Under the pieces are notes generated by a model, which was given only the letters and a program-made list of their open reading frames with translations, had not been told where the DNA came from and did no database searches. Below, one piece after another: positions 1 through 9,516 of a stretch of 9,516 nt of DNA (positions are counted from its first letter, which is position 1; each line of letters opens with the position of its first letter). This DNA comes from a virus. Lineage: Duplodnaviria > Heunggongvirae > Uroviricota > Caudoviricetes. The stretch is taken from positions 1 through 9,516 of IMG/VR virus record IMGVR_UViG_3300029722_000071, one strand, 5' to 3'. A program made the translations under genes and the position numbers.

Positions 1-19
1 CTAATGGCGGTATGTGATA

Positions 20-95
20 TGGTGGCCCTTGCTGGATTTGAACCAGCGACCTGGCGATTATGAGTCGCTCGCTCTCACCACTGAGCTAAAGGGCC
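20..95 (-). tRNA. tRNA with CAU anticodon, tRNA-Ile2 (lysidine-type, ileX/ileY/ileZ-like); elongator tRNA-Met not excluded
   Basis: Reverse complement of 20..95 is GGCCCTTTAGCTCAGTGGTGAGAGCGAGCGACTCATAATCGCCAGGTCGCTGGTTCAAATCCAGCAAGGGCCACCA (76 nt): 7-bp acceptor stem, D arm GCTC/GAGC, anticodon loop CTCATAA (anticodon CAT), T arm with GGTTCAAATCC, encoded CCA. Overall pattern matches E. coli tRNA-Ile2 as I recall it. Confidence 0.8.
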
Positions 96-135
96 GGGCG
101 CAGGATAATAACGGTACGTAACTAATCCTGCAATA

Positions 136-1194
136 TCATCCATTCTGACTGACTAAATCCTGTACTTCCCTGACCGTCTGCTCAAAACGTTCAGTCTCCA
201 GCTCAACGCCAGTTGCACGACGCCCCAGCGCCATCGCAGCTTTGACTGTCGAACCCGACCCCATGAAGAAATCTGCAACCAGGTCACCCGGACGACTGCT
301 CGCACTGATTATCTGCTGCAGCATTTCTGCCGGTTTTTCGCACGGATGTTTCCCGGGATAGTACTGCACCGGTTTATGCGTCCACACATCCGTGTACGGT
401 ACCTGCGCAGTTACGCCAAAATACCGCCGCAGATGCTTATATTCACTCTGCAGTTCCGCATACTGCCGGTTCAGTGAAGTATACGTCTCCAGCAGCTGGT
501 GGTGGGGCTTTTCCAGTTCACCGCGCTGATGCTTCTCTTCTGCCACCCGGGCAAACAGCGCCTGTAATTTCAGATAATCGCTTTCGTTCGGTAGCTGCCA
601 CTGACCGGCACTGAACCAGTGCGACACCATGTTTTTCTTTCCTGTGGCATCCACTATCTGTTTTGCCGTTATCCCCAGGGCAGCACGCGCATCACGAAAG
701 TAAGCAATCAGCGGAGCCATCACATGCTGTTTCAGTGCCCTGCCCTTCGCCTCATACCCGGCATCTTTCGGGCGATACGGCCCCTGATAATGTTCCGCGA
801 ACAGAATGCGCTCTGTGGCGGGGAAATACGCCCTCAGGCTTTCCTTGTTGCACCCGTTCCAGCGTCCGGACGGCTTCGCCCAGATAATATGGTTCAGCAC
901 ACTGAAGCGTTCACGCATCATGATTTCGATATCAGATGCCAGGCGATGGCCACAGAACAGGTAAAGACTTCCGGCAGGTTTCAGCACCCGCCAGAACTGC
1001 GCAAGACACTGGTCCAGCCATTTCAGGTAATCATCGTCGCCCTTCCACTGGTTATCCCAGCCCTCAGGCTTCACTTTAAAGTACGGCGGGTCCGTGACTA
1101 TCAGGTCAACAGAATTTTCGGGTAACGACCGGATAAATTCCAGGCAGTCGGCGTTGATTAACTCACAACTGGATATTTTTACAGTGTTAAACAT
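136..1194 (-). CDS. DNA methyltransferase, beta-class N6-adenine/N4-cytosine type (orphan; no adjacent restriction gene)
   Basis: 352-aa ORF with catalytic DPPY motif near the N-terminus (IVTDPPYF) and the SAM-binding FxGxG motif near the C-terminus (DFFMGSGST), the motif IV-before-motif I order of beta-class amino-MTases. ATG start at 1194. Target sequence cannot be inferred. Confidence 0.85.
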   Translation of the reverse strand: MFNTVKISSCELINADCLEFIRSLPENSVDLIVTDPPYFKVKPEGWDNQWKGDDDYLKWLDQCLAQFWRVLKPAGSLYLFCGHRLASDIEIMMRERFSVLNHIIWAKPSGRWNGCNKESLRAYFPATERILFAEHYQGPYRPKDAGYEAKGRALKQHVMAPLIAYFRDARAALGITAKQIVDATGKKNMVSHWFSAGQWQLPNESDYLKLQALFARVAEEKHQRGELEKPHHQLLETYTSLNRQYAELQSEYKHLRRYFGVTAQVPYTDVWTHKPVQYYPGKHPCEKPAEMLQQIISASSRPGDLVADFFMGSGSTVKAAMALGRRATGVELETERFEQTVREVQDLVSQNG

Positions 1195-1330
1195 GGATCA
1201 TTAAGCCTGTCTCTGATAGGCTCATTCTGCTTTTGCGCAAAGCAGTGGGCCTGAGGTTTGCTTGTGATCCGGACGCATGAGCAGATGGCTGGTGAGTGCC
1301 CCTAACACCCACCAGCCGCCCATTTACCAC

Positions 1331-1358
1331 AAATAAAAAAGCCTTCAGGACTGAAGGC
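1331..1358 (-). terminator. Rho-independent terminator for minus-strand transcripts
   Basis: Plus strand 1341..1358 gccttca-ggac-tgaaggc (7-bp stem, 4-nt loop) preceded by aaataaaaaa (1331..1340), so the minus-strand RNA has the hairpin followed by a U-run. Overlaps the stop codon of the 1345..1542 gene. Confidence 0.7.
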
Positions 1359-1542
1359 GTCTGTAACAACCGAACTGATAGTCTGCCAGCCCCGCCATAA
1401 CAAGCTGGGTCAGTATTAACTGACAGCGTTCGCGTGAAAGGTACGTATTCTGTGCAATCTCCCCGACTGTCGCCGGTTCGGTGACGCTTAATTCATTAAA
1501 CACCACTCTGGCGGTTTCGGTCATATCCTGCTGTTTCAGCAT
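1345..1542 (-). CDS. small winged-helix DNA-binding protein (65 aa), hypothetical; FaeA/PapI-like pattern possible
   Basis: Track ORF 1345..1665 shortened to the internal ATG at 1542 (MLKQQDMTETARVV...), which has an AGGGA Shine-Dalgarno about 7 nt upstream; the longer N-terminal extension runs through an upstream terminator hairpin. Sequence TVGEIAQNTYLSRERCQLILTQLVMAG looks like a helix-turn-helix/wing. Confidence 0.5.
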   Translation of the reverse strand: MLKQQDMTETARVVFNELSVTEPATVGEIAQNTYLSRERCQLILTQLVMAGLADYQFGCYRRLQS

Positions 1543-1663
1543 GTCTTTTTCCCTTTTCCGGTTAACGTGACACACCAATAACTCTTGTCGAAAAAGCCAG
1601 CAAGCTGAAAGAACGGTATTAATAACCACCAGCGAATTTATTGCGCTGCTGTATATTACGGAC

Positions 1664-1686
1664 ACAAAAAAACCACCTTCCGGTGG
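1664..1686 (-). terminator. Candidate intrinsic terminator (tR-prime-like) downstream of the Q-like gene
   Basis: Plus 1673..1686 ccacc-ttcc-ggtgg (5-bp GC stem, GGAA tetraloop on the minus strand) preceded by a 7-A run (1666..1672), giving a U7 tract after the hairpin on the minus-strand RNA. About 75 nt downstream of the Q-like stop. Confidence 0.5.
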
Positions 1687-1759
1687 CTTCCTTGTGCGAA
1701 AAAAACTTGCATTTCGCCTCGCGATACAGCCTTGCGAAGCTTATACGGATTGAAGCAGT

Positions 1760-2332
1760 TTATTGATCAGTTTGCAACATTTTTTTCTCTGTAACAAAAG
1801 CCATACGCATGGGGGCATGTAACATAAATTCAGATATCCCCAACCACTGATCAATTCGGCGTCTGCACGTAACCAACGTCCACTCAGGATGATCTGCATT
1901 TAACCTTTCGGCCATTTTCAGTTTGCTCATTCCCCGTCCTTCGTACCTTTGCCGGAGAATATTGATTAGTCCGGGATATTCCCCAAGCACCTCACTGATA
2001 ACGCGATCAATAATCAACGCCTCTGTGTCTGTACAATGTGACAACCAGCTCTTCTGCTTCCCTCTGGTCATATCCCGAAAAAATGCCTCAAGTTCCGGTT
2101 TTTCCAGCCCGGATTTCTTCATTCTGCGTAAAACCTCATTAACTGCTGTTTTCGTCAGCTTTTTCGAAACCAGTAACCGGTTAAACATATTTCCGGATTT
2201 ACCCCCACCGATATACGACCACCGCCCCCACATCCGTAATTTCCCCTGGATCCAGACTGCTTCCAGCGTGTTCAGGCGTAAATGTTCGCCGCTTTTGCCT
2301 GTAATTTCCGGATATATCATATTTACGCTCAC
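1760..2332 (-). CDS. putative late-gene antiterminator Q-like protein (190 aa); function assigned mainly by synteny
   Basis: Lies immediately downstream of rusA with a GTGA stop/start overlap, as Q does in phage 82/DLP12-type lambdoids, and is followed by a promoter-sized gap and a terminator. N-terminal WGRW motif resembles the WGAW of QuuD-type Q proteins as I recall them. No motif-level proof. Confidence 0.5.
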   Translation of the reverse strand: MSVNMIYPEITGKSGEHLRLNTLEAVWIQGKLRMWGRWSYIGGGKSGNMFNRLLVSKKLTKTAVNEVLRRMKKSGLEKPELEAFFRDMTRGKQKSWLSHCTDTEALIIDRVISEVLGEYPGLINILRQRYEGRGMSKLKMAERLNADHPEWTLVTCRRRIDQWLGISEFMLHAPMRMAFVTEKKMLQTDQ

Positions 2333-2694
2333 TCACTCTCAATTTTGTAAATCTTCACACCCAGCCGACCACCAAGAACAAGCTGACCACGTACAATATT
2401 GATTTCATCAAACTGCTCATCGTCCATTAACAACCCCGCATGCGTAAGCGCATCCAGCGGTGCTTTCAGAATATTGTCCAGGTCACGGCGGCGCTTATCC
2501 GGTGGTTCTGCAATAATTTTTATTGCCAACCGTCCGGACAGGCTTAATTTCAAGCGCTGCTGGCGAACAATAAGCGCCACTGCCCGGCGATAACGCTCCC
2601 CGGCTTTTGATACAAAATATGTGCTGCCACGGCGTCGCCAGTAAGTGTTCACCGTCGGCGGGTAAGGCAAAACAAATTCTATGCGTTCGGTCAT
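2329..2694 (-). CDS. rusA: RusA-family Holliday junction resolvase (crossover junction endodeoxyribonuclease)
   Basis: 121-aa product MTERIEFVLPYPPTVNTYWRRRG...PDKRRRDLDNILKAPLDALT...GGRL matches the E. coli RusA pattern (LPWPPS.N.Y, PDRRRRDLDN, GGRL). ATG at 2694 directly follows the upstream stop. Confidence 0.9.
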   Translation of the reverse strand: MTERIEFVLPYPPTVNTYWRRRGSTYFVSKAGERYRRAVALIVRQQRLKLSLSGRLAIKIIAEPPDKRRRDLDNILKAPLDALTHAGLLMDDEQFDEINIVRGQLVLGGRLGVKIYKIESE

Positions 2695-3759
2695 TTATGC
2701 TTTCCACTTCAGAACACCCGAATTTCTCGCGTGCATTAAAAAACGAATCAGCAACAACAGCTGACTGCCGTGTTTCTCTTCAAAATCTTTTACTCCGGCG
2801 TGTAGTTCGTTATGGCATTTACGGCACAGCGGAATAACAAACAAATCGTCAGCCTTTGTTCCCATCCCTCCCAGTCCATGACCAATGATGTGATGCGGAT
2901 CATCTGCCTGATTGCCACACGTCATGCATTTCTGCGTTTTTACCCAGCGCGTGTATACAGGCATCTCTTCCCGTTGTGGTTTCTGGCGCTGGAGATACTG
3001 AGCCGGAGATTCCGGATCAACGGCAATGCTGACCACCGTCTTTTCCTGTGGTGGGTTCTGTTGCTGGTGCTGGTGGACGTGAGGCGGTAGCGCAATATTT
3101 TTTGTGCGCTGCTTCAGTATGCTGGTGGCTGTCTGTTCTCCCGGTACGATGTCGCTCTCACTGTATACGGAGCGGATTTTTTTCACCGGTAATCCCAGTG
3201 AACGACGCAATACAGACTCCGGAAGCGCATCAGCCACCTGATTGCAGACCGCCCACCAGGATAATTCGGCCAGCGATAACTCCCTCTCCTGCGTACCGCT
3301 GATTGCGTGACGGATGACGTCAATCATCCATGCTGACAGGTTTTGATGAGCAAGTTGCCCGAGTGATTCGGATGTCTGGTCACGCAGCTGGTTGTCGCAG
3401 TGCCAGCACAACACCATCGCGCCGGTACCGTAACGATGTATGACGATTTCACTGTGATGATAGTCACCATGAGGCCACTGGCAGGATTTGACATGACGCA
3501 ACAGCCAGTCAGACAGTGCCCCAGCACCACCAGCAGCACGAATCACCCGATCATCGCTGAAAAATGGCAGTAATGATTTATCCTCCGCCAGCGGCTGGCG
3601 AACAGCAGGGACGACTCCGGACGGCAGATTACGCATGCTTTTCGGTTCCGGCTCCACCAGTACCCGGGTATTGTGGAATACCGGCATGGATTCACGGCCC
3701 GGCTTAACGATCACCAGCCCGAGTTCCGGTACCAGAACAGGTCGAAGTAATACCCGCAC
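2695..3759 (-). CDS. DUF968-family (YdfU-like) protein with C-terminal HNH-type zinc-finger nuclease motif
   Basis: 354-aa ORF; C-terminus CMTCGNQADDPHHIIGHGLGG...PLCRKCHNELH has the Cys pairs and His residues of an HNH zinc finger. GTG start at 3759 has a GGAGG Shine-Dalgarno 4 nt upstream. Same position relative to hok as ydfU in the K-12 Qin prophage. Confidence 0.75.
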   Translation of the reverse strand: MRVLLRPVLVPELGLVIVKPGRESMPVFHNTRVLVEPEPKSMRNLPSGVVPAVRQPLAEDKSLLPFFSDDRVIRAAGGAGALSDWLLRHVKSCQWPHGDYHHSEIVIHRYGTGAMVLCWHCDNQLRDQTSESLGQLAHQNLSAWMIDVIRHAISGTQERELSLAELSWWAVCNQVADALPESVLRRSLGLPVKKIRSVYSESDIVPGEQTATSILKQRTKNIALPPHVHQHQQQNPPQEKTVVSIAVDPESPAQYLQRQKPQREEMPVYTRWVKTQKCMTCGNQADDPHHIIGHGLGGMGTKADDLFVIPLCRKCHNELHAGVKDFEEKHGSQLLLLIRFLMHARNSGVLKWKA

Positions 3760-3760
3760 G

Positions 3761-4039
3761 TTACCTCCAGATGCGTTGCTGGAATGTGCGGGACGGACGC
3801 GGTGGGCGTTCAGAGTAAGGAAGCCTGACGGAGATTATCCAGTGACGATAATCGAGGCTGAGGGTTTTCCTAAACTCATACCCACGTCTGCGGTAGTTCT
3901 GAATCAGCCATTCGGCCTGTTCTTCAGTGCATGGGGCGTGCTGTAACCAGTCAGATTTGAATGCATGAGAACGCCGCCCGTGCCTGCTGGCAAAGACGGC
4001 TGAATTATCAGAATTGTATAATTTGGTATCGTGCGCCAT
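3761..4039 (-). CDS. hypothetical protein (92 aa); positional equivalent of rem in Qin-type prophages
   Basis: Track ORF 3761..4120 shortened to the ATG at 4039 (MAHDTKLYNSDNSAVF...), because the TTG-initiated extension overlaps the hok terminator U-tract. No recognisable motif. Confidence 0.5.
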   Translation of the reverse strand: MAHDTKLYNSDNSAVFASRHGRRSHAFKSDWLQHAPCTEEQAEWLIQNYRRRGYEFRKTLSLDYRHWIISVRLPYSERPPRPSRTFQQRIWR

Positions 4040-4110
4040 CGGTTGTCTCTGCTGGCGCAGCAGGTGCCAGTTGTTCAGGCTGGCGTGCGAATTGTAAACC
4101 AGAATGCCAG

Positions 4111-4138
4111 GAAAAAACAAAACCCGCCGAAGCGGGTT
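4111..4138 (-). terminator. Rho-independent terminator of the hok transcript
   Basis: Plus 4121..4138 aacccgc-cgaa-gcgggtt (7-bp stem, UUCG tetraloop on the minus strand) preceded by gaaaaaacaa, giving a U-rich tail on the minus-strand RNA. An additional 9-bp hairpin ggcgaggga/tccctcgcc lies at 4179..4200, where an fbi-like hok 3-prime element would be expected. Confidence 0.75.
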
Positions 4139-4206
4139 AAGTGCGGGTGCGTTGAGGATGCCTGACTCATCAGAGGTGGCGAGGGATTTCTCCCTCGCCA
4201 GGTCTC

Positions 4207-4362
4207 TTACTCCTCAGGTTCGTAAGCTGTGAAGACAGCGACCTCCGTCTGGCCGGTTCGGATTCGTACCTCGCAGAGGTCTTTCCTCGTTACCAGTGCC
4301 GTCACAATGACGGTAATACAGATGACGATCAGGGCGACTAACATCGCCTTTTGCTGCTTCAT
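4207..4362 (-). CDS. hokD: Hok/Gef-family type I toxin (51 aa), HokD/RelF-type
   Basis: Product MKQQKAMLVALIVICITVIVTALVTRKDLCEVRIRTGQTEVAVFTAYEPEE is nearly identical to E. coli K-12 HokD/RelF as I recall it. ATG at 4362 with AAGGAG Shine-Dalgarno; the track ORF extends in-frame to an upstream ATG at 4419. Confidence 0.9.
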   Translation of the reverse strand: MKQQKAMLVALIVICITVIVTALVTRKDLCEVRIRTGQTEVAVFTAYEPEE

Positions 4363-4409
4363 AGCCTGCTTCTCCTTGCCTTTCGGCGTGTAAGAGGCTA
4401 ACCTACATG

Positions 4410-4486
4410 TGACTAGCATGAAATTGGCCTCAGATTAATGTTAAGCGTCCTGCAAGACGCATAATGTTAACTGGGGCTTTTCTCTG
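4410..4486 (+). ncRNA. candidate Sok-like antisense RNA (approximate boundaries)
   Basis: Plus-strand region antisense to the hok leader around the upstream mok-like ATG: long-range stem gcctcag (4427..4433) / ctggggc (4471..4477) enclosing hairpin gcgtc-ctgcaa-gacgc (4445..4460), followed by uuuucucu. Position matches where sok lies in plasmid R1 hok/sok. Promoter not confidently located. Confidence 0.35.
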
Positions 4487-4535
4487 TCTGCCTTACGGTG
4501 GCATGCCCGAGGCAGACAGCCTCAAGCACCCGCAG

Positions 4536-4566
4536 CAATTCTACTTAACTCTCGCTTTACCGCAAA
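4536..4566 (-). promoter_or_regulatory. candidate sigma70 promoter of the hok mRNA
   Basis: On the minus strand: -35 TTGCGG (plus 4560..4565), 16-bp spacer, -10 TAGAAT (plus 4538..4543), about 7 nt before a 5-prime sequence GGUGCUUGAGGCUGUCUGCC that resembles the R1 hok mRNA 5-prime end as I recall it. Confidence 0.4.
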
Positions 4567-4577
4567 CCGTTTTTACC

Positions 4578-4599
4578 CGATATGGGAATTCCCATATCG
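4578..4599. promoter_or_regulatory. 22-bp perfect palindrome just upstream of the hok promoter; candidate protein-binding site
   Basis: cgatatgggaattcccatatcg is a perfect inverted repeat (11-bp arms, no spacer), about 12 bp upstream of the candidate -35. Not followed by a U-run on either strand, so not a terminator. Confidence 0.3.
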
Positions 4600-4607
4600 T
4601 AATGAAT

Positions 4608-4712
4608 TCAGTTCCCTAGTCGATCCATCAAAAACACAACCAGGCAGTAAACACCCACAACAGCAATAACAGCCAGCGCACCTTCCATTGCCAGTGAGAT
4701 ATCATCCGACAC
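4608..4712 (-). CDS. candidate small hydrophobic protein (34 aa) missing from the ORF track
   Basis: Minus strand reads AAAGGAGGGAAT-GTG TCG GAT GAT ATC ... TGA, giving MSDDISLAMEGALAVIAVVGVYCLVVFLMDRLGN: a strong Shine-Dalgarno 4 nt before GTG and one predicted transmembrane helix. Start codon uncertain (in-frame ATG at 4688 would give 26 aa). Confidence 0.3.
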   Translation of the reverse strand: MSDDISLAMEGALAVIAVVGVYCLVVFLMDRLGN

Positions 4713-4827
4713 ATTCCCTCCTTTGGTGTTAATCCCGGCGAACGCTTTTACCCACACCGACAAATAACATATACTAAAAAAGCGATAGCCATAGCAACGC
4801 CTGTAATTGCAAATGCTTCAGGCTAGG

Positions 4828-5745
4828 TCATTGGCGTACCTCCTTCGGCGGTTCTGGTAGCGGCATCCAGTGGGTTACTTTCGATGCCGGTTCTTCCCCA
4901 TTGTCAGTAACTGCCCACCATTTGTTTCTCGAACAATCGTAATACCCTTCGAAGGTATCGCACTCAGTCCAGCCGTAAGACTTACCCCAACACCAAACAT
5001 ACTGTTTATCGTTCGGCATTCGCTCACTACAGCTTATCCAACCATCCGGAGTTACCGGAGAGTTGCCCGATAGTGCATTCTGCTCCAGTGATGCTTTTAC
5101 AAACCACGCTGCCTGAACTATAACGCCATGAATCCAGCGCAAATCAGCATCGCGATCTTTCTTTTTCATCTTTTCGCCACTTAAGGCCTTGCTTATGTGG
5201 CTGCGTACCAGGTCTTCATGCAATTCCTTCGCCTCCTCAATGGTGAAACCACCAGGCAGAAGAGCCGGAGTTACCGGAGAGCTGGTTGACGCTTCCGGGA
5301 TTTCCCGAAAATTATTGGTTGACGAATTCTTGCTTTCCCGAAAGTTTCCGGACTGAAGCATGGCGGTGCGGCAGGCGTTCCATATTTCGGCAGCAATATC
5401 GCGCTCGCTATCGGTTAATTTGTACGTGGAAACATAGCCAGAGAGCATTTCTACGTTTTCCGGAGTTGCTTCTTCCGGCACTACCGGCGCTGGCGGGGCG
5501 GCAAATAGATATCCGCCAAAGTCAGGAAGCTCTCCAATGGCCTGTACGAACTTTTGTTTGCCTACGTCAACTCCTAATGGGTAATGAGCTATAATCTTTG
5601 CCACCGGCTCTGCTTCCAGCGATACCAGTGCAATTCGTGCCAGTTCTTCCGCTTCTTCTGCTGGCAGTACAACGTTGCTACCCGGTCCGTATGTTTCGCG
5701 CCACTGCTTGATTGTCAGCAGTCGCCCTTTGGTAATAGTGATCAT
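4828..5745 (-). CDS. DUF551 domain-containing phage protein (305 aa)
   Basis: C-terminus DGWISCSERMPNDKQYVWCWGKSYGWTECDTFEGYY...VTHWMPLPEPPK matches the DUF551 signature as I recall it. ATG at 5745 overlaps the upstream stop (ATGA). Confidence 0.8.
   Translation of the reverse strand: MITITKGRLLTIKQWRETYGPGSNVVLPAEEAEELARIALVSLEAEPVAKIIAHYPLGVDVGKQKFVQAIGELPDFGGYLFAAPPAPVVPEEATPENVEMLSGYVSTYKLTDSERDIAAEIWNACRTAMLQSGNFRESKNSSTNNFREIPEASTSSPVTPALLPGGFTIEEAKELHEDLVRSHISKALSGEKMKKKDRDADLRWIHGVIVQAAWFVKASLEQNALSGNSPVTPDGWISCSERMPNDKQYVWCWGKSYGWTECDTFEGYYDCSRNKWWAVTDNGEEPASKVTHWMPLPEPPKEVRQ
5046..5062. repeat. 17-bp perfect direct repeat, copy 1, inside the DUF551 gene
   Basis: ccggagttaccggagag at 5046..5062 and again at 5265..5281, 219 bp apart (in frame); both copies encode the S-P-V-T-P peptide. 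Confidence 0.7.
5265..5281. repeat. 17-bp perfect direct repeat, copy 2, inside the DUF551 gene
   Basis: Identical to 5046..5062. Confidence 0.7.
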
Positions 5746-6257
5746 GCCGCGTTTCCTTCTTTCTTATTAACAATCACACCGTCATATATTTCATTAAGGT
5801 GCCCTCTCAACTCCATGCGCCTTAATGCAGATAACATGTAATCGCATTCAACCTGCTTATTCCCAGTAAATGGCTTATCGTCAGGATTACCCCAACAGCA
5901 ATTACCCCTGGGCCATCCATGTACTTTCCGTACTCTTCCGTTAACAACGTGAAGTAATCCCCAGCCGGGAGGTAAATCCTCAACTGAAATAATTTCCGGC
6001 TCACTAATAAAGAATCGCCAGTCGCCCATGCCAAGTGAGGGATTTTTACGGAAACGCTTTTTTCTATCTGCCAACAAGTCAGCACGAGAACACTTCGCCT
6101 CTATCAGGCATGATGCTGAATTTCTGAATCCCATAGCATCTGGCTGTTCTCCGGTACTGGTTACAGCAACAAAGCGGTCATGAAAGCAAACCTTGAACCC
6201 GTTGCGCTTAAGGAACTTGTACGCAATCTGACAGAGTTCGTGGTGTGTTAACGCCAT
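5742..6257 (-). CDS. putative PD-(D/E)xK-fold nuclease-like protein (171 aa)
   Basis: Track ORF 5742..6290 shortened to the ATG at 6257, which sits behind the duplicated GGAGAG-TGA-n-ATG junction. Sequence ...VAVTSTGEQPDAMGF-8 aa-CLIEAKCSRADL has the hydrophobic-strand D ... E-x-K spacing of restriction-endonuclease-like nucleases. Confidence 0.55.
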   Translation of the reverse strand: MALTHHELCQIAYKFLKRNGFKVCFHDRFVAVTSTGEQPDAMGFRNSASCLIEAKCSRADLLADRKKRFRKNPSLGMGDWRFFISEPEIISVEDLPPGWGLLHVVNGRVRKVHGWPRGNCCWGNPDDKPFTGNKQVECDYMLSALRRMELRGHLNEIYDGVIVNKKEGNAA

Positions 6258-6282
6258 ATCACTCTCCTTTGATGCGAATGCC
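6255..6282. repeat. 28-bp duplicated gene-junction module, copy 1
   Basis: cat-a-tcactctcctttgatgcgaatgcc at 6255..6282; apart from one base it is identical to 7098..7125. Encodes the ...GIRIKGE-stop tail of the upstream gene, a GGAGAG Shine-Dalgarno and the ATG of the next gene. Confidence 0.75.
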
Positions 6283-6780
6283 TGTTGCAATGCTGTTTAT
6301 GATGCTGTCAGTGCATGGGGTAGAAAGCTGGGCATCTCCAGCAATTTTCATGACCTCAACATCTGCATATCGAATACCGAGGTGTATCAGACCGGCTATG
6401 CCTGACTTAAGTCGAACATTTTCCATAAACAGATCTTTTTCCCGCTGTTTAGCGGCTTCCAACTCCATCGACAATTTTTCCAACTGCTCTTTATGCTTCT
6501 TGTATTCCTGATACGCGTGCCAAGACTGACCTTTGCGCACACTATCAGTGATATCAGCAACCTGCTCCGGTGTTAGCGTGGTCAGTGGCTGTGCTGGAAA
6601 AATCATCACCTTCCCGGCATCCCAATCAAAACCCGCCTGAATTGACTGAACCTCAACTGATGGTGTTGAACCGATGCGACCAGGCGAATGAACAACGATC
6701 GTTACATCCATATCGCGACGATGGCTGTGGTTGTTGGACAAAATACGATTCACCAACTCAGAAAATTTGGAAAATTTCAT
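6259..6780 (-). CDS. hypothetical coiled-coil protein with C-terminal GIRIKGE tail (173 aa)
   Basis: Track ORF 6259..6909 shortened to the ATG at 6780 ([14 protein letters not shown]...), which overlaps the upstream stop (ATGA). C-terminal ...ATGIRIKGE is shared with the 7102..7851 product. Confidence 0.55.
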
Positions 6781-7100
6781 GCTGATCCCTCTTTTTCTCC
6801 CCGGATAATTCTGTTGCACACATCCACACACTCGTCGCAGATGAAAACGGCGTCCCCAGCAATTAACTTTTTGACGGCGTACTGGGATTTGTTGCAGAAG
6901 CTGCAACAAAGTGTTCGCCTGACTGATAAGGATGGAGCGCCAGATGTCAGCCGCTCCATATCGTTCTTGCGACGCAATATCACACGGCTGAACTCAACCA
7001 GTTTCTCCGGGGATATCTCCTCCTCCGTAGCAAGCGCCTCTAATCGTTCGAGTATGTGGAAGGCTTTTTTCTGGGTAATTGCAGAATGCGATGTGGTCAT
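6777..7100 (-). CDS. small protein with C-terminal ClpX-type C4 zinc-finger domain (107 aa)
   Basis: Track ORF 6777..7142 shortened to the ATG at 7100, behind the conserved junction. C-terminal [39 protein letters not shown] closely parallels the ClpX N-terminal zinc-binding domain ([39 protein letters not shown], as I recall it). Confidence 0.75.
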
Positions 7101-7125
7101 CTCACTCTCCTTTGATGCGAATGCC
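7098..7125. repeat. 28-bp duplicated gene-junction module, copy 2
   Basis: cat-c-tcactctcctttgatgcgaatgcc at 7098..7125; see copy 1. Confidence 0.75.
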
Positions 7126-7851
7126 AGCGGCGCGGGAATCATTCCATCGCTTTACTTCTTCACGAATTACGTCAATGCACTCTTTCGAATCCATTAGGTA
7201 ATCTTCATCAAAAAGACGTTCCTGTTCGTTTTCTATCGCAACAATGATTGCTTCAACTAACTTTTGTGCCTGAGAACCACTTTCTAACTCTGCAATGCGC
7301 TTCTCTGCGGCTTCCAGATTCTCGCGCATATCGTCAACGTACTCGACCAGAGATCCGCCAGCAGGAATTTCGCATTCCTCGACCAGTTGGAAGTAGATAT
7401 CAGCTGCGGCCCGTGTGTTGCTATGCCTAGCGTCGCCCATCTCACCTTCACGAAGAGCATCGCGTTCGGCGGTAAGATTGGCTATTTTGCTGTCTTTGCC
7501 TTCCAGCTCAACGCGCAGCCTCCCAACCGTAAGCGCAATATCCTCGTTCTCCTGATCGCGGCTTTTGATGTATTGCAGGTTTCTTTCCCGTTCATCCAGC
7601 AGTGCCAGCACGGTAGCCGGGTTAGCCTCTGCTATGAATTCAGCGTTTGCATAAGCCTGAGCATCTGTTTCAACCAGGCAGTTAACGTGACATTCTGCAA
7701 TTACGCCACCGGGTTCTCCTTTCCATTTTTGACAAACAAAAACTCCTGTTAAATTGCCGTGTTGGTTAACAGATGTATGCCCTACGATGTAGCTTCCTTT
7801 AGTTGCTTTCTCTGCCTTTTCACGCAGTGCCTGATAGTTAATCTCGCTCAC
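7102..7851 (-). CDS. ead/Ea22-like coiled-coil protein (249 aa); family assignment tentative
   Basis: GTG start with GGAGG Shine-Dalgarno, overlapping the upstream stop (GTGA). N-terminus [17 protein letters not shown] and the segment [18 protein letters not shown] resemble prophage ead/Ea22-like proteins as I recall them; C-terminal ...AAGIRIKGE. Confidence 0.55.
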
Positions 7852-8072
7852 TCTTCATCCTCCAAGTCGGCAACGGCGTCCATCACATCAGAACCGCGAA
7901 TAACCTCAAAAGCACGGCAGGCCATTTGAAATACCAGTTGCTCTTGCGGGTGAGGAGACTCCCAATATTTGAAGCCTGGGCGATGCGTGTACCCCATCAT
8001 TGAATAAAAATCACCAGCAAGCTTAATCGCGGCATCGACAAGCTCTCTGTTAGTCATTCTTTTTCCGCTCAC
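7848..8072 (-). CDS. hypothetical protein (74 aa), mildly acidic C-terminus
   Basis: GTG start at 8072 with AAGGAGG Shine-Dalgarno 6 nt upstream, overlapping the upstream stop (GTGA). No recognisable motif. Confidence 0.55.
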   Translation of the reverse strand: MSGKRMTNRELVDAAIKLAGDFYSMMGYTHRPGFKYWESPHPQEQLVFQMACRAFEVIRGSDVMDAVADLEDEE

Positions 8073-8500
8073 TGGTTGCCTCCTTTGCGAAGCTGGGCAG
8101 CAAAGTCAACTAACCACTCAGTCATTTCAACCTTCCCTACCAGGTCTGAACCAGGGTACATACAGCAATCACTCTGCGCCGCTTTGAAATCCTTATACTC
8201 ATATTCTTGGGCCACCAGATTTTTTGCAGCTTCTATAGCAGCATCCACCCCCTGCGCCCGGACTTCAGCCAGGAAAGCATCAGTGGCTGGCATATTTCCT
8301 GTTGCCTTCATTGCCTCCAAAATAACCAGAACGCCATCTCGCCCAATCTCCTCGCAGATAACCTCGGTGCTGTCGCCAACAACATCGCAAAATGCCTGAA
8401 CTGCTTTACGAGCCAGCGCATCTTCCGCCCTGTGAAACGCCTCGCGGTTGAAATTTTCATATCCCGTCATTGGACCGGCAATATAAACTCTCACCCTCAC
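8069..8500 (-). CDS. hypothetical protein with DUF4406 / nucleoside 2-deoxyribosyltransferase-like N-terminal motif (143 aa)
   Basis: GTG start at 8500 with AGGAGG Shine-Dalgarno. N-terminus MRVRVYIAGPMTGYENFNREAFHRAEDAL matches the YIAGPMTG...N..F..A DUF4406 signature as I recall it; the C-terminal MYPGSDLVGKVEMTEW may correspond to its LPGWE.S.G motif. The roughly 80 residues between do not look like that family. Confidence 0.5.
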   Translation of the reverse strand: MRVRVYIAGPMTGYENFNREAFHRAEDALARKAVQAFCDVVGDSTEVICEEIGRDGVLVILEAMKATGNMPATDAFLAEVRAQGVDAAIEAAKNLVAQEYEYKDFKAAQSDCCMYPGSDLVGKVEMTEWLVDFAAQLRKGGNQ

Positions 8501-8889
8501 TCCATCACCTCCTGAAAGTTTCCCCGATAGAACGCCAGCACACGCTGCATAACTTCGCTCCTCCTGCTCTCACGACAAATTATGTTCTGCCGTCTGTTGT
8601 AACGACGTATTTCTCCGTCAGGTAACTTTCGAATCAGTGTCGGGTCAGCAGCCTTCTCCGGTGTCTTACGCCATACGCGATACGCCTGCTCTGATGGAAA
8701 TACCCCGCAACCAGAGAGCCAGACATCACCACTGGCCGCAAGCGCACCAGATAAACGACGAATAGCGGTCTTACTGACACCCGTTTTATCTGCCAGTTGT
8801 CGAAAAGTTTCTCGTCCGCTCAGGCGCACGAATTCCACAATGCGCGCCTTCACTTCTTCCCGCTCTTCTGGTGTAAATACTTTTGCCAT
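8497..8889 (-). CDS. helix-turn-helix DNA-binding protein (130 aa), hypothetical
   Basis: Track ORF 8497..8904 (TTG start) shortened to the ATG at 8889, which has a GGAGG Shine-Dalgarno 5 nt upstream. HTH-like segment ETFRQLADKTGVSKTAIRRLSGAL. Confidence 0.55.
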   Translation of the reverse strand: MAKVFTPEEREEVKARIVEFVRLSGRETFRQLADKTGVSKTAIRRLSGALAASGDVWLSGCGVFPSEQAYRVWRKTPEKAADPTLIRKLPDGEIRRYNRRQNIICRESRRSEVMQRVLAFYRGNFQEVME

Positions 8890-8904
8890 AAGCGCCTCCG
8901 GCAA

Positions 8905-9486
8905 TCACTTTTCCGACACAATACGACCGGATGAATCGACAATCTGTCGAACAATATCCCGGTGCTTGTTCAGCTCCCGCAGCGCGGCGCAGACTCGCTC
9001 CCACTTCTGAACCTGACCTTTTGCCCGGCGCAGCTCGCGGTTAGCCACATGCAGCGATGGTAAAATCAGACCATCCGGATGTTTTCTGGTGAACGACGGC
9101 TGTGACTGCACTGTGACCGCCACACTTTCCGTTTTTATTTCTTCCTGTGTTTCTGCTTCCCGGACAGGTAACGCAACACCTGCTGGCTGAGGAAAGGCTT
9201 TACCATCGGTTTCCGCTACGGATGCAGCTTCCGGCTCTGCCGGTAAATCAGCGCCCGGTATGCAGTAACGAAATTTACCGCCCTGATTCACGCGAATCAG
9301 ACGCCCTTTGCTGATTGCCATGGCCAGCGATGAATTCGCCCGGCGGGAGGTAATCCCGAACATCAGTGCCAGCTCATCCGCCGTTTGTGGGCCATGTTGT
9401 TCAATCGCCTCAGTCAACATTTGCGCTGTCACTTTCGGTACCGGTGACACCGGTTCACTTTCACCAGCCTGAATCAGCCACCACAT
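8905..9486 (-). CDS. hypothetical protein with N-terminal winged-helix-like region (193 aa); may extend beyond the window
   Basis: ATG at 9486 has an AAGGG Shine-Dalgarno-like sequence upstream, but the frame stays open to the window end at 9516, so the true start could lie outside. No recognisable catalytic motif. Confidence 0.5.
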
Positions 9487-9516
9487 CGAACCCTTGTTAT
9501 CCGCTTCACCGCGGCG

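Follow-up and report, generated by a model that had tools for sequence, protein, structure and literature searches.

A short conserved linker sequence as a probable junction for in-frame domain shuffling in mosaic genes of lambdoid prophages

We analysed a stretch of 9,516 nucleotides (nt) of viral DNA (Duplodnaviria; Heunggongvirae; Uroviricota; Caudoviricetes), positions 1 to 9,516 of the IMG/VR record IMGVR_UViG_3300029722_000071, hereafter the window. One of its genes ends in a DUF551 domain and carries two copies of a 17-bp direct repeat, each coding for the peptide SPVTP. We observed that this repeat lies in an island conserved at the nucleotide level between many unrelated flanking sequences, that these flanks reassort, that breakpoints cluster at the edges of the island, and that natural alleles are of several types, with the slot between the two copies filled, empty or filled otherwise. 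The two copies are probably a shared linker-coding junction for in-frame domain shuffling. The encoded peptide, (G)(N/S)SPVTP(DGW), appears to be a proline-rich inter-domain linker of lambdoid, largely Stx-type, prophages in E. coli and related bacteria, and the junction seems to be the common border of N modules, optional cassettes and C-terminal domains (DUF551 or others). Exchanges and deletions would arise by homology-dependent recombination across the island, which spans 17-30 bp.

Results

A non-random repeat in a DUF551 gene

The gene, its DUF551 domain and the two linker copies are placed as follows.

4828..5745, minus strand: mosaic open reading frame (ORF) with an ATG start, 305 amino acids (aa), the only long ORF across the region
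4843..5043, minus strand: DUF551 domain (PF04448), aa 235-301, profile positions 1-68 of 68
5265..5281, minus strand: linker copy A, gene-proximal, CTCTCCGGTAACTCCGG, coding for S156-PVTP160 in the context STS-SPVTP-ALLPGG
5046..5062, minus strand: linker copy B, gene-distal, the same 17-mer, coding for S229-PVTP233 in the context SGN-SPVTP-DGWISC

The 17-mer CCGGAGTTACCGGAGAG (CTCTCCGGTAACTCCGG in coding-strand form) occurs exactly twice in the window, at 5046-5062 and 5265-5281, and a scan of the window allowing up to two mismatches gave no further site for it. The copies start 219 bp, or 73 codons, apart; both begin on codon position 3, giving SPVTP, and 20 of 21 bases are identical between them in an extended alignment. 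Copy B comes second in gene order, yet first in plus-strand coordinates. It adjoins the DUF551 domain, since it covers aa 229-233 and the Pfam match spans aa 235-301. Membership of the family is clear (64.5 bits against a cut-off of 22, E = 1.6e-17), and DUF551 is the sole Pfam domain in the ORF. When one copy and the interval were removed in silico, an intact ORF of 232 aa remained. A sequence-only reading of this DNA had proposed an in-frame 17-bp repeat with two copies 219 bp apart, each encoding SPVTP and the second immediately before DUF551, such that the loss of 73 codons would keep the frame; window scan, translation, Pfam boundary and in silico deletion agree with it on all of these points.

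The repeat is real and non-random. The 17-mer had no match in 200 dinucleotide-preserving shuffles (expected number, 0), which together with its conservation in at least 119 IMG/VR contigs refutes chance, and an artefact of assembly can be put aside with equal confidence given the same long allele in 10 independent complete genomes and many viral contigs. We also rejected an internal duplication as its origin because, beyond the linker, the cassette has nothing in common with its flanks. Nor is this a tandem-repeat contingency locus: the copies lie 219 bp apart, and Tandem Repeats Finder gave no tandem array at the repeat site, its one match in the gene being a 9-nt unit repeated 2.1 times elsewhere.

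A nucleotide-conserved island between unrelated flanks

The exact 17-mer was found in at least 119 contigs in a scan of IMG/VR, kept to the base and always in the same frame, reading (N/S)SPVTP. Upstream of it these contigs encode many unrelated peptides. Downstream they encode DUF551 variants (DGWISCSERMP...), a Cys-rich domain (DGWVMVPK...), or sequences such as DGHIQFSV... and DDVRRMDWL.... Hence the repeat, which the sequence-only reading had presented as a feature of this gene, is present there as described, but it belongs to a family-wide junction common to dozens of unrelated modules. The 17-mer is the core of an island with the consensus GGCAA-CTCTCCGGTAACTCCGG-ATGGTTGG. After de-replication, the IMG/VR prophage contigs fell into at least 48 upstream and 47 distal-downstream clusters, joined in 108 combinations. 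Mean pairwise identity per position was 0.25-0.35 outside the island, 0.9-1.0 at -3 to +20, and 0.55-0.9 from there to +47. This is the pattern of linker exchange, a short sequence conserved between otherwise unrelated flanks, here in 108 contexts.

Breakpoints were scored in pairs of loci sharing one flank only. On the upstream side, 145 of 157 fell within 12 nt of the core. On the downstream side there were two classes, one at +17 to +25 (33 cases) and one at +48 to +54 (73 cases), the latter after the DGWISCSERMP head of the DUF551 module. Moreover, 37 pairs of upstream clusters share at least two downstream clusters, so that all four combinations are present. The flanks thus reassort, with breakpoints at the conserved sequence, as linker exchange requires.

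5038..5067, minus strand: conserved island around copy B, GGCAACTCTCCGGTAACTCCGGATGGTTGG, an imperfect palindrome
5014..5061, minus strand: constant head of the DUF551 module, SPVTPDGWISCSERMP, whose 3' edge is the second breakpoint class

A further scan, run because the other analyses select on the motif, used only the peptide SPVTPDGW (pattern TCNCCNGTNACNCCNGAYGGNTGG), which removes selection on codons and still conditions on the peptide. The codons TCT CCG GTA ACT CCG were found in 114 of the 119 sampled sites (96%). A scan of one genome per species with a degenerate pattern gave 48 matches against about 35 expected by the information content of the pattern, mostly chance; we kept the 10 matches that are preceded by Asn and lie in Enterobacteriaceae or in contaminant contigs. 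These true homologues (Kluyvera, Citrobacter, Escherichia sp. and contaminants of a Segatella metagenome-assembled genome) have the same codons in nine cases out of ten, against scattered codons in the roughly 38 chance matches. The contaminants L168 and L170 are two short contigs of a metagenome-assembled genome of Segatella copri. Their NSPVTP-DUF551 genes are of typical E. coli type, down to the same codons, and most likely stem from binning contamination by enterobacterial prophage DNA. The peptide itself varies in intact genes, where we found NYPVTP, NSPATP, NAPVIP, NSPVIP and QVPVTP.

The palindrome arms of the island are CAACTCTCCGG-TAACT-CCGGATGGTTG, and as single-stranded DNA the island would form a hairpin of -7.3 kcal/mol (z = -3.4). 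The outer stem is missing from copy A. We dropped an RNA element as an explanation because Rfam, searched in sensitive mode, had no match at the island other than a snoRNA at chance level.

Natural alleles with filled, empty and alternative slots

Complete E. coli genomes were searched with the gene by megablast; 2784 of 5426 had a match, but only 51 had at least 80% of the gene. The partial matches start or stop at the linker copies (query positions 1-479, 472-698, 673/676/679-908 and 679-731), and a single genome holds up to 8-9 copies of parts of the gene. Using a synthetic "deleted" junction as query, we recovered 19 complete E. coli genomes that agree in their N-module end and in their DUF551 body, and in which the slot contains:

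about 219 bp (216 bp in H90): 10 of the 19 genomes
165 bp: 5 of the 19
about 540 bp: 3 of the 19
nothing: 1 of the 19

The empty slot (locus L211) is marked by a single linker, NAPVIP. Locus L212 has a different cassette of 55 aa (DGLSTVCAEAYQVV...) between NSPVIP and PVTP; P0026 has a third one (SEVLSAILKVARIRADFDDF...) between the same N-terminus and DUF551 body as in the window; and P0021 has cassettes in tandem. Among the IMG/VR contigs, L004, L062, L092 and L122 lack exactly the 219 bp: upstream they carry the NFR..STS-SPVTP module, collinear with long forms of the L002 type, and downstream they are collinear with the long forms L001, L077 and L087. The gene of the window would thus be a slot-filled allele.

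The sequence-only reading had anticipated long and short forms bounded by SPVTP, a proposal that could have failed if the repeat were not conserved and no homologue lacked the intervening segment. Both points turned out in its favour, and both forms exist, between phage genomes. Its picture of two forms is too narrow, however, as the slot may also hold at least three alternative cassettes or cassettes in tandem. Two more proteins, P0005 and P0024, have internal duplications of 100 aa that include the cassette and whose ends do not coincide with the linkers; either these rearrangements are real or the assemblies are in error. As single-member clusters with possible assembly errors they were excluded from the evidence.

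The cassette as a portable domain

5062..5265, minus strand: portable cassette, aa 161-228, ALLPGGFTIEEAKEL...ASLEQNALSGN, 68 aa

The cassette occupies most of the 73-codon interval between the copies. The 236-nt segment was found in 491 of the 5426 complete E. coli genomes and in 108 phage records. Stx-converting phages account for 83 of these records (70 Stx2a-converting, 11 Stx1a-converting and 2 Stx1), and the cassette-bearing phages include P13374, the phage of the O104:H4 outbreak. Two linker copies surround the cassette in all 16 loci examined, and it is paired with at least eight DUF551 bodies and at least three upstream modules. The second copy is degraded in some lineages, where it keeps 16 of 17 positions (NYPVTP, NSPATP). 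Against a variant of 92.7% identity the cassette has a ratio of nonsynonymous to synonymous polymorphism (pN/pS) of 0.21, which points to purifying selection.

Among 1.84 billion representative proteins, a full HMMER search found the cassette in 84 clusters, down to 45% identity. In distant relatives it either forms the C-terminal domain of coiled-coil Ea22-like proteins ending in ...IKGE or precedes a DUF551-like domain without the SPVTP linker. Neither Pfam, NCBIfam nor PADLOC had a match for it. The cassette thus belongs to an unnamed family of domains, with the pattern LPGGF(S/T)xEEAxxLHxDLVxSHISKAxSGExM...DLxWI...AAWFV. In an AlphaFold2 (AF2) model built from 50 close homologues, with a mean predicted local distance difference test (pLDDT) of 45, the cassette is two helices and the linker segments are coil, at low confidence; it may accordingly be a self-contained helical domain. 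Only DUF551 is modelled with confidence (pLDDT 64-91), so that the lack of matches at E <= 0.001 in a Foldseek search of the low-confidence model against PDB is uninterpretable. A sequence search of PDB returned nothing relevant for the whole protein, and NCBIfam and PADLOC no match.

Other junctions in the same gene

5470..5493, minus strand: PAPVVPEE junction, 24 nt, CCAGCGCCGGTAGTGCCGGAAGAA, aa 85-92
4828..4875, minus strand: constant tail of DUF551, THWMPLPEPPKEVRQ followed by the stop; tail sequence in the loci compared, THWMPLPEPPQEV...
5281..5346, minus strand: imperfect 33-nt tandem, NFRESKNSSTN / NFREIPEASTS, units 77% identical

Read from its start, the gene comprises an N module, the PAPVVPEE junction, a short module ending in WNACRTAMLQSG, two NFRE repeats of 11 aa, SPVTP, the cassette, SPVTP and DUF551. 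The 33-nt tandem stands between ...AMLQSG and copy A; most other upstream modules lack it and read ...CRAAMLQAG-NSPVTP.

The PAPVVPEE junction is a second one of this type, in frame and conserved at the nucleotide level. We found it in at least 107 IMG/VR contigs, where 16 upstream clusters and 11 downstream ones adjoin it, and immediately outside it identity falls to background. It has in common with both SPVTP copies the sequence CCGGTANNNCCGG, coding for P-V-x-P, which has three matches in the window, all in the mosaic gene, against 0.01 expected. Another type of variation is found within the DUF551 module, where bodies of 40-60 aa exist in more than 15 very different versions between the constant head and tail (loci L004-L162). 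Such a layout points to replacement of the body through double crossovers in the two conserved ends. The tail also acts as a junction to the next gene, because it contains a Shine-Dalgarno sequence (AAGGAGG) and an ATGA stop/start overlap with that gene.

Elsewhere in the window, GGCATTCGCATCAAAGGAGAGTGA(N)ATG ends two consecutive genes (...GIRIKGE and stop) on the minus strand, at about 7099-7125 and 6256-6282, and the DUF551 tail CCGCCGAAGGAGGTACGCCAATGA (4828-4850) is built likewise. The significance of the C-terminal "+GE" tripeptide of Ea22 proteins has been called unknown (PMC7093339). Here it is the Shine-Dalgarno sequence (AAGGAG), read as codons, of the gene that follows and is coupled to it in translation. 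Both the window and L015 have ATGACCTAG (M-T-stop) as the small downstream ORF overlapping the DUF551 stop (about 4822-4831, minus strand); L001 and related loci have an intact form of this ORF, which encodes a small hydrophobic protein, MSWPDAIVTLGVVFAAAFVVFSICRWG.

Genomic context

All genes of the window are on the minus strand, and the mosaic ORF begins in an ATGA where its start codon and the stop codon of the preceding ORF overlap. The gene lies in a nin-type region. On one flank are genes for DUF1627, DUF977, a DUF4406 fragment and an Ead/Ea22-like protein (7102-7851), then a ClpX-type zinc-finger gene and two genes without assigned function before the mosaic gene. On the other flank are hokD and genes for a DUF968/HNH-like protein, RusA, DUF1133 (Q-like) and a DNA methyltransferase. 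A copy of the gene that is 99.8% identical occurs in a prophage of E. coli S1-CAM-02-A, followed by tRNA genes as in Stx-type phages.

The mosaic ORF itself had no match to Ead_Ea22 (PF13935) at E <= 0.1, the match in the window being to the separate ORF at 7102-7851 (114 bits), and it does not lie between exo and xis, where an ea22 gene would be. In phage PhiR5_1 a near-identical long allele with a truncated DUF551 does sit between exo/bet/gam and xis/int, and its "Ea22" label is the depositor's name only. Given the different locations in PhiR5_1 and the window, the gene moves among the early regions of lambdoid phages.

Chi sites were considered as a driver of recombination at the repeat and rejected, there being no exact Chi in the DUF551 gene. 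The window has six exact Chi (GCTGGTGG) between 495 and 3534, at 495, 3069 and 3121 on the plus strand and at 1309, 1626 and 3527 on the minus strand, against 0.29 in shuffles. Lambdoid phages rich in Chi are reportedly the subject of a published report.

Discussion

How modules might be joined at the island

Crossovers within the island of 17-30 bp would join modules by homology-dependent recombination. Candidate agents are single-strand annealing by phage Red or RecT, or RecA; for deletions within one molecule, slipped misalignment is also a candidate. The island sits in one fixed frame inside a flexible linker, and every event would therefore give a translatable chimera. The same logic might apply to the PAPVVPEE junction and to the gene-end junctions that bear the ribosome-binding site of the next gene. 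The copies of parts of the gene, up to 8-9 per genome, would supply recombination partners. Published experiments show that Rad52-like phage recombinases can recombine phages with defective prophages into mosaics where homology is short and diverged, and that traces of homology flank half of lambdoid mosaics (PMC3945230, PMC2327257).

Several points weigh against recombination at a shared junction. The events are deduced from alleles, and none was observed directly. The 17 bp of perfect identity, or some 25-65 bp of near-identity with the DUF551 head, are at or below the minimum homology of Red-beta, quoted as about 30 bp (PMC3945230). Loci were selected by the motif, so that conservation within the 17-mer is partly by construction. 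Identical codons could reflect recent common descent, many of the sampled contigs being closely related E. coli prophages, and in the one cassette comparison where linker divergence was counted there were 0 differences in the two linkers against about 1.9 expected, which is not significant. The distant cassette homologues lack SPVTP flanks, so that the linker is not needed for a domain to be portable. Finally, random joints followed by selection would likewise end in linkers.

This last point leads to the most serious alternative, that selection acts at the level of the protein only. The SPVTP peptide would then matter as a hinge or as a site of processing or modification, and mosaics would be made by illegitimate, homology-independent recombination of which only the joints in linkers survive, the identity of the DNA being due to recent descent. 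The joints do coincide with predicted unstructured segments between helices and domains in the low-confidence AF2 model, altered linker peptides are tolerated in intact genes, and distant homologues of the cassette travel without the linker. Yet we consider this rather unlikely. In 96% of the sampled sites, and in different genera, five four-fold degenerate positions carry the same bases. In 108 contexts the island ends sharply, to within a few bases, and the four possible combinations of flanks all recur. Random joining is not expected to hit the same register and the same codons repeatedly.

One might also imagine that the repeat serves programmed or high-frequency switching between long and short forms, akin to a contingency locus, within one lysogen or phage population. 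Its geometry would allow this, with an in-frame deletion between forms that are both natural. But deletion cannot act as a switch because the loss of the cassette is irreversible without a donor, and a 17-bp repeat at 219 bp is expected to delete rarely from what is generally known of RecA-independent deletion between short repeats. Furthermore, the second copy has decayed in several lineages with no sign of selection for exactness, and 10 complete genomes stably carry the same long allele. Switching of this kind thus seems very improbable.

We give hardly more credit, indeed slightly less, to the idea that some site- or structure-specific enzyme uses the island as its dedicated recombination signal, in the manner of a "domain shufflon" or of a cassette system. 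It is suggested by the hairpin-forming palindrome, by the sequence CCGGTANNNCCGGA that the independent PAPVVPEE junction shares with it, and by the resemblance of palindrome-bracketed cassettes to integron attC sites. However, the ORFs of the window have no domain of an integron integrase, of an invertase or of another site-specific recombinase, and the nearest nucleases are RusA and the DUF968/HNH-like protein. As for the repeats, they have direct orientation, they are part of a reading frame, and the codons of PV(T/V)P account for them; copy A lacks the outer stem and Rfam had no match. A related speculation, and a long shot, is that GCAACTCTCCGG-TAACT-CCGGATGGTTG and the related CCGGTANNNCCGGA at PAPVVPEE are a hairpin-forming signal used by a phage function for in-frame shuffling. 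If so, the constant head and tail and hypervariable body of DUF551 would make this a cassette system diversifying early-expressed phage proteins, which might target variable factors of the host or of rival phages.

Relation to known systems

Exchange at a shared junction has its closest parallel in the modular evolution of lambdoid phages. In these phages, linker sequences that separate modules are said to have been described by Susskind and Botstein in 1978 and by Clark et al. in 2001 for HK620. What is shared are short conserved sequences between interchangeable modules with reassorting flanks, traces of homology at mosaic borders, and several partner prophages per cell. In contrast with those gene-boundary linkers, the junction described here is intragenic, keeps a fixed frame and exchanges protein domains instead of genes; its length of only about 17-30 bp, or up to about 65 bp when the DUF551 head is counted, also puts it at the lower limit for Red.

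Slipped misalignment at short direct repeats gives deletions that do not depend on RecA, for example at the hotspots of lacI. The present repeat resembles these in its length of about 17 bp, in the few hundred bp between copies and in the loss of one copy with the interval. Unlike our data, that process covers only the passage from long to short within one molecule, and neither alternative cassettes nor the reassortment of flanks. Shufflons (Rci/sfx) and integron cassettes (attC) also have short conserved sites bracketing interchangeable coding segments. Here, in contrast, the repeats are direct and made of translated linker codons, and the window ORFs include no dedicated recombinase. Shufflon or invertase switching was thus set aside on the direct orientation of the repeats and the lack of a recombinase domain in any window ORF, and an integron cassette on the lack of an integrase in the window and the in-frame translation of the cassette inside a gene. 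A diversity-generating retroelement fared no better: there is no reverse transcriptase domain in the window, and DUF551 bodies differ wholesale and not at adenines.

The ea22 gene of Stx phages is a mosaic, and DUF551 a "portable domain" found in many contexts (Sci Rep 2024, PMC10834534; Virus Genes 2020, PMC7093339). The Stx variants consist of mosaic blocks with an extra internal segment, and V1 and V2 share a segment of 16 aa (PMC10834534). The present gene has in common with them its gene neighbourhoods and families, as well as the Ea22 label of the PhiR5_1 long allele; it differs by lacking the Ead_Ea22 domain and by its place in the nin region. Those papers deal with blocks at the protein level, and the nucleotide-conserved SPVTP junction, the cassette slot and the breakpoints are not described there. 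A literature search for NSPVTP, SPVTPDG and SPVTPDGW returned one unrelated paper and no description of the junction, the slot or breakpoint statistics.

Implications

The locus is an unusually clean case of known phage mosaicism and calls for no new mechanism. It defines an unnamed portable domain, which appears helical, and shows the layout of DUF551 with a constant head, a variable body and a constant tail. Published work connects DUF551 with the pro-lysogenic Ea22 variants of Stx phages.

There is also a practical consequence. In NZ_CP145707.1 the Prokaryotic Genome Annotation Pipeline (PGAP) calls the intact ORF of 305 aa two "incomplete" DUF551 pseudogenes (L003, 5501-5980 and 6176-6418), splitting it exactly at the two linker copies, and the related mosaic alleles L211 and L212 are treated alike. 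These calls are a systematic annotation artefact for mosaic phage genes. The gene content of Stx and other lambdoid prophages is hence under-reported, since intact mosaic genes are annotated as partial pseudogenes.

More generally, the locus offers a countable, base-resolved case for the old debate on whether short conserved homologies or random joining give rise to phage mosaics. With dozens of unrelated modules linked by one in-frame junction of 17-30 bp, these alternatives become testable by crosses between natural alleles.

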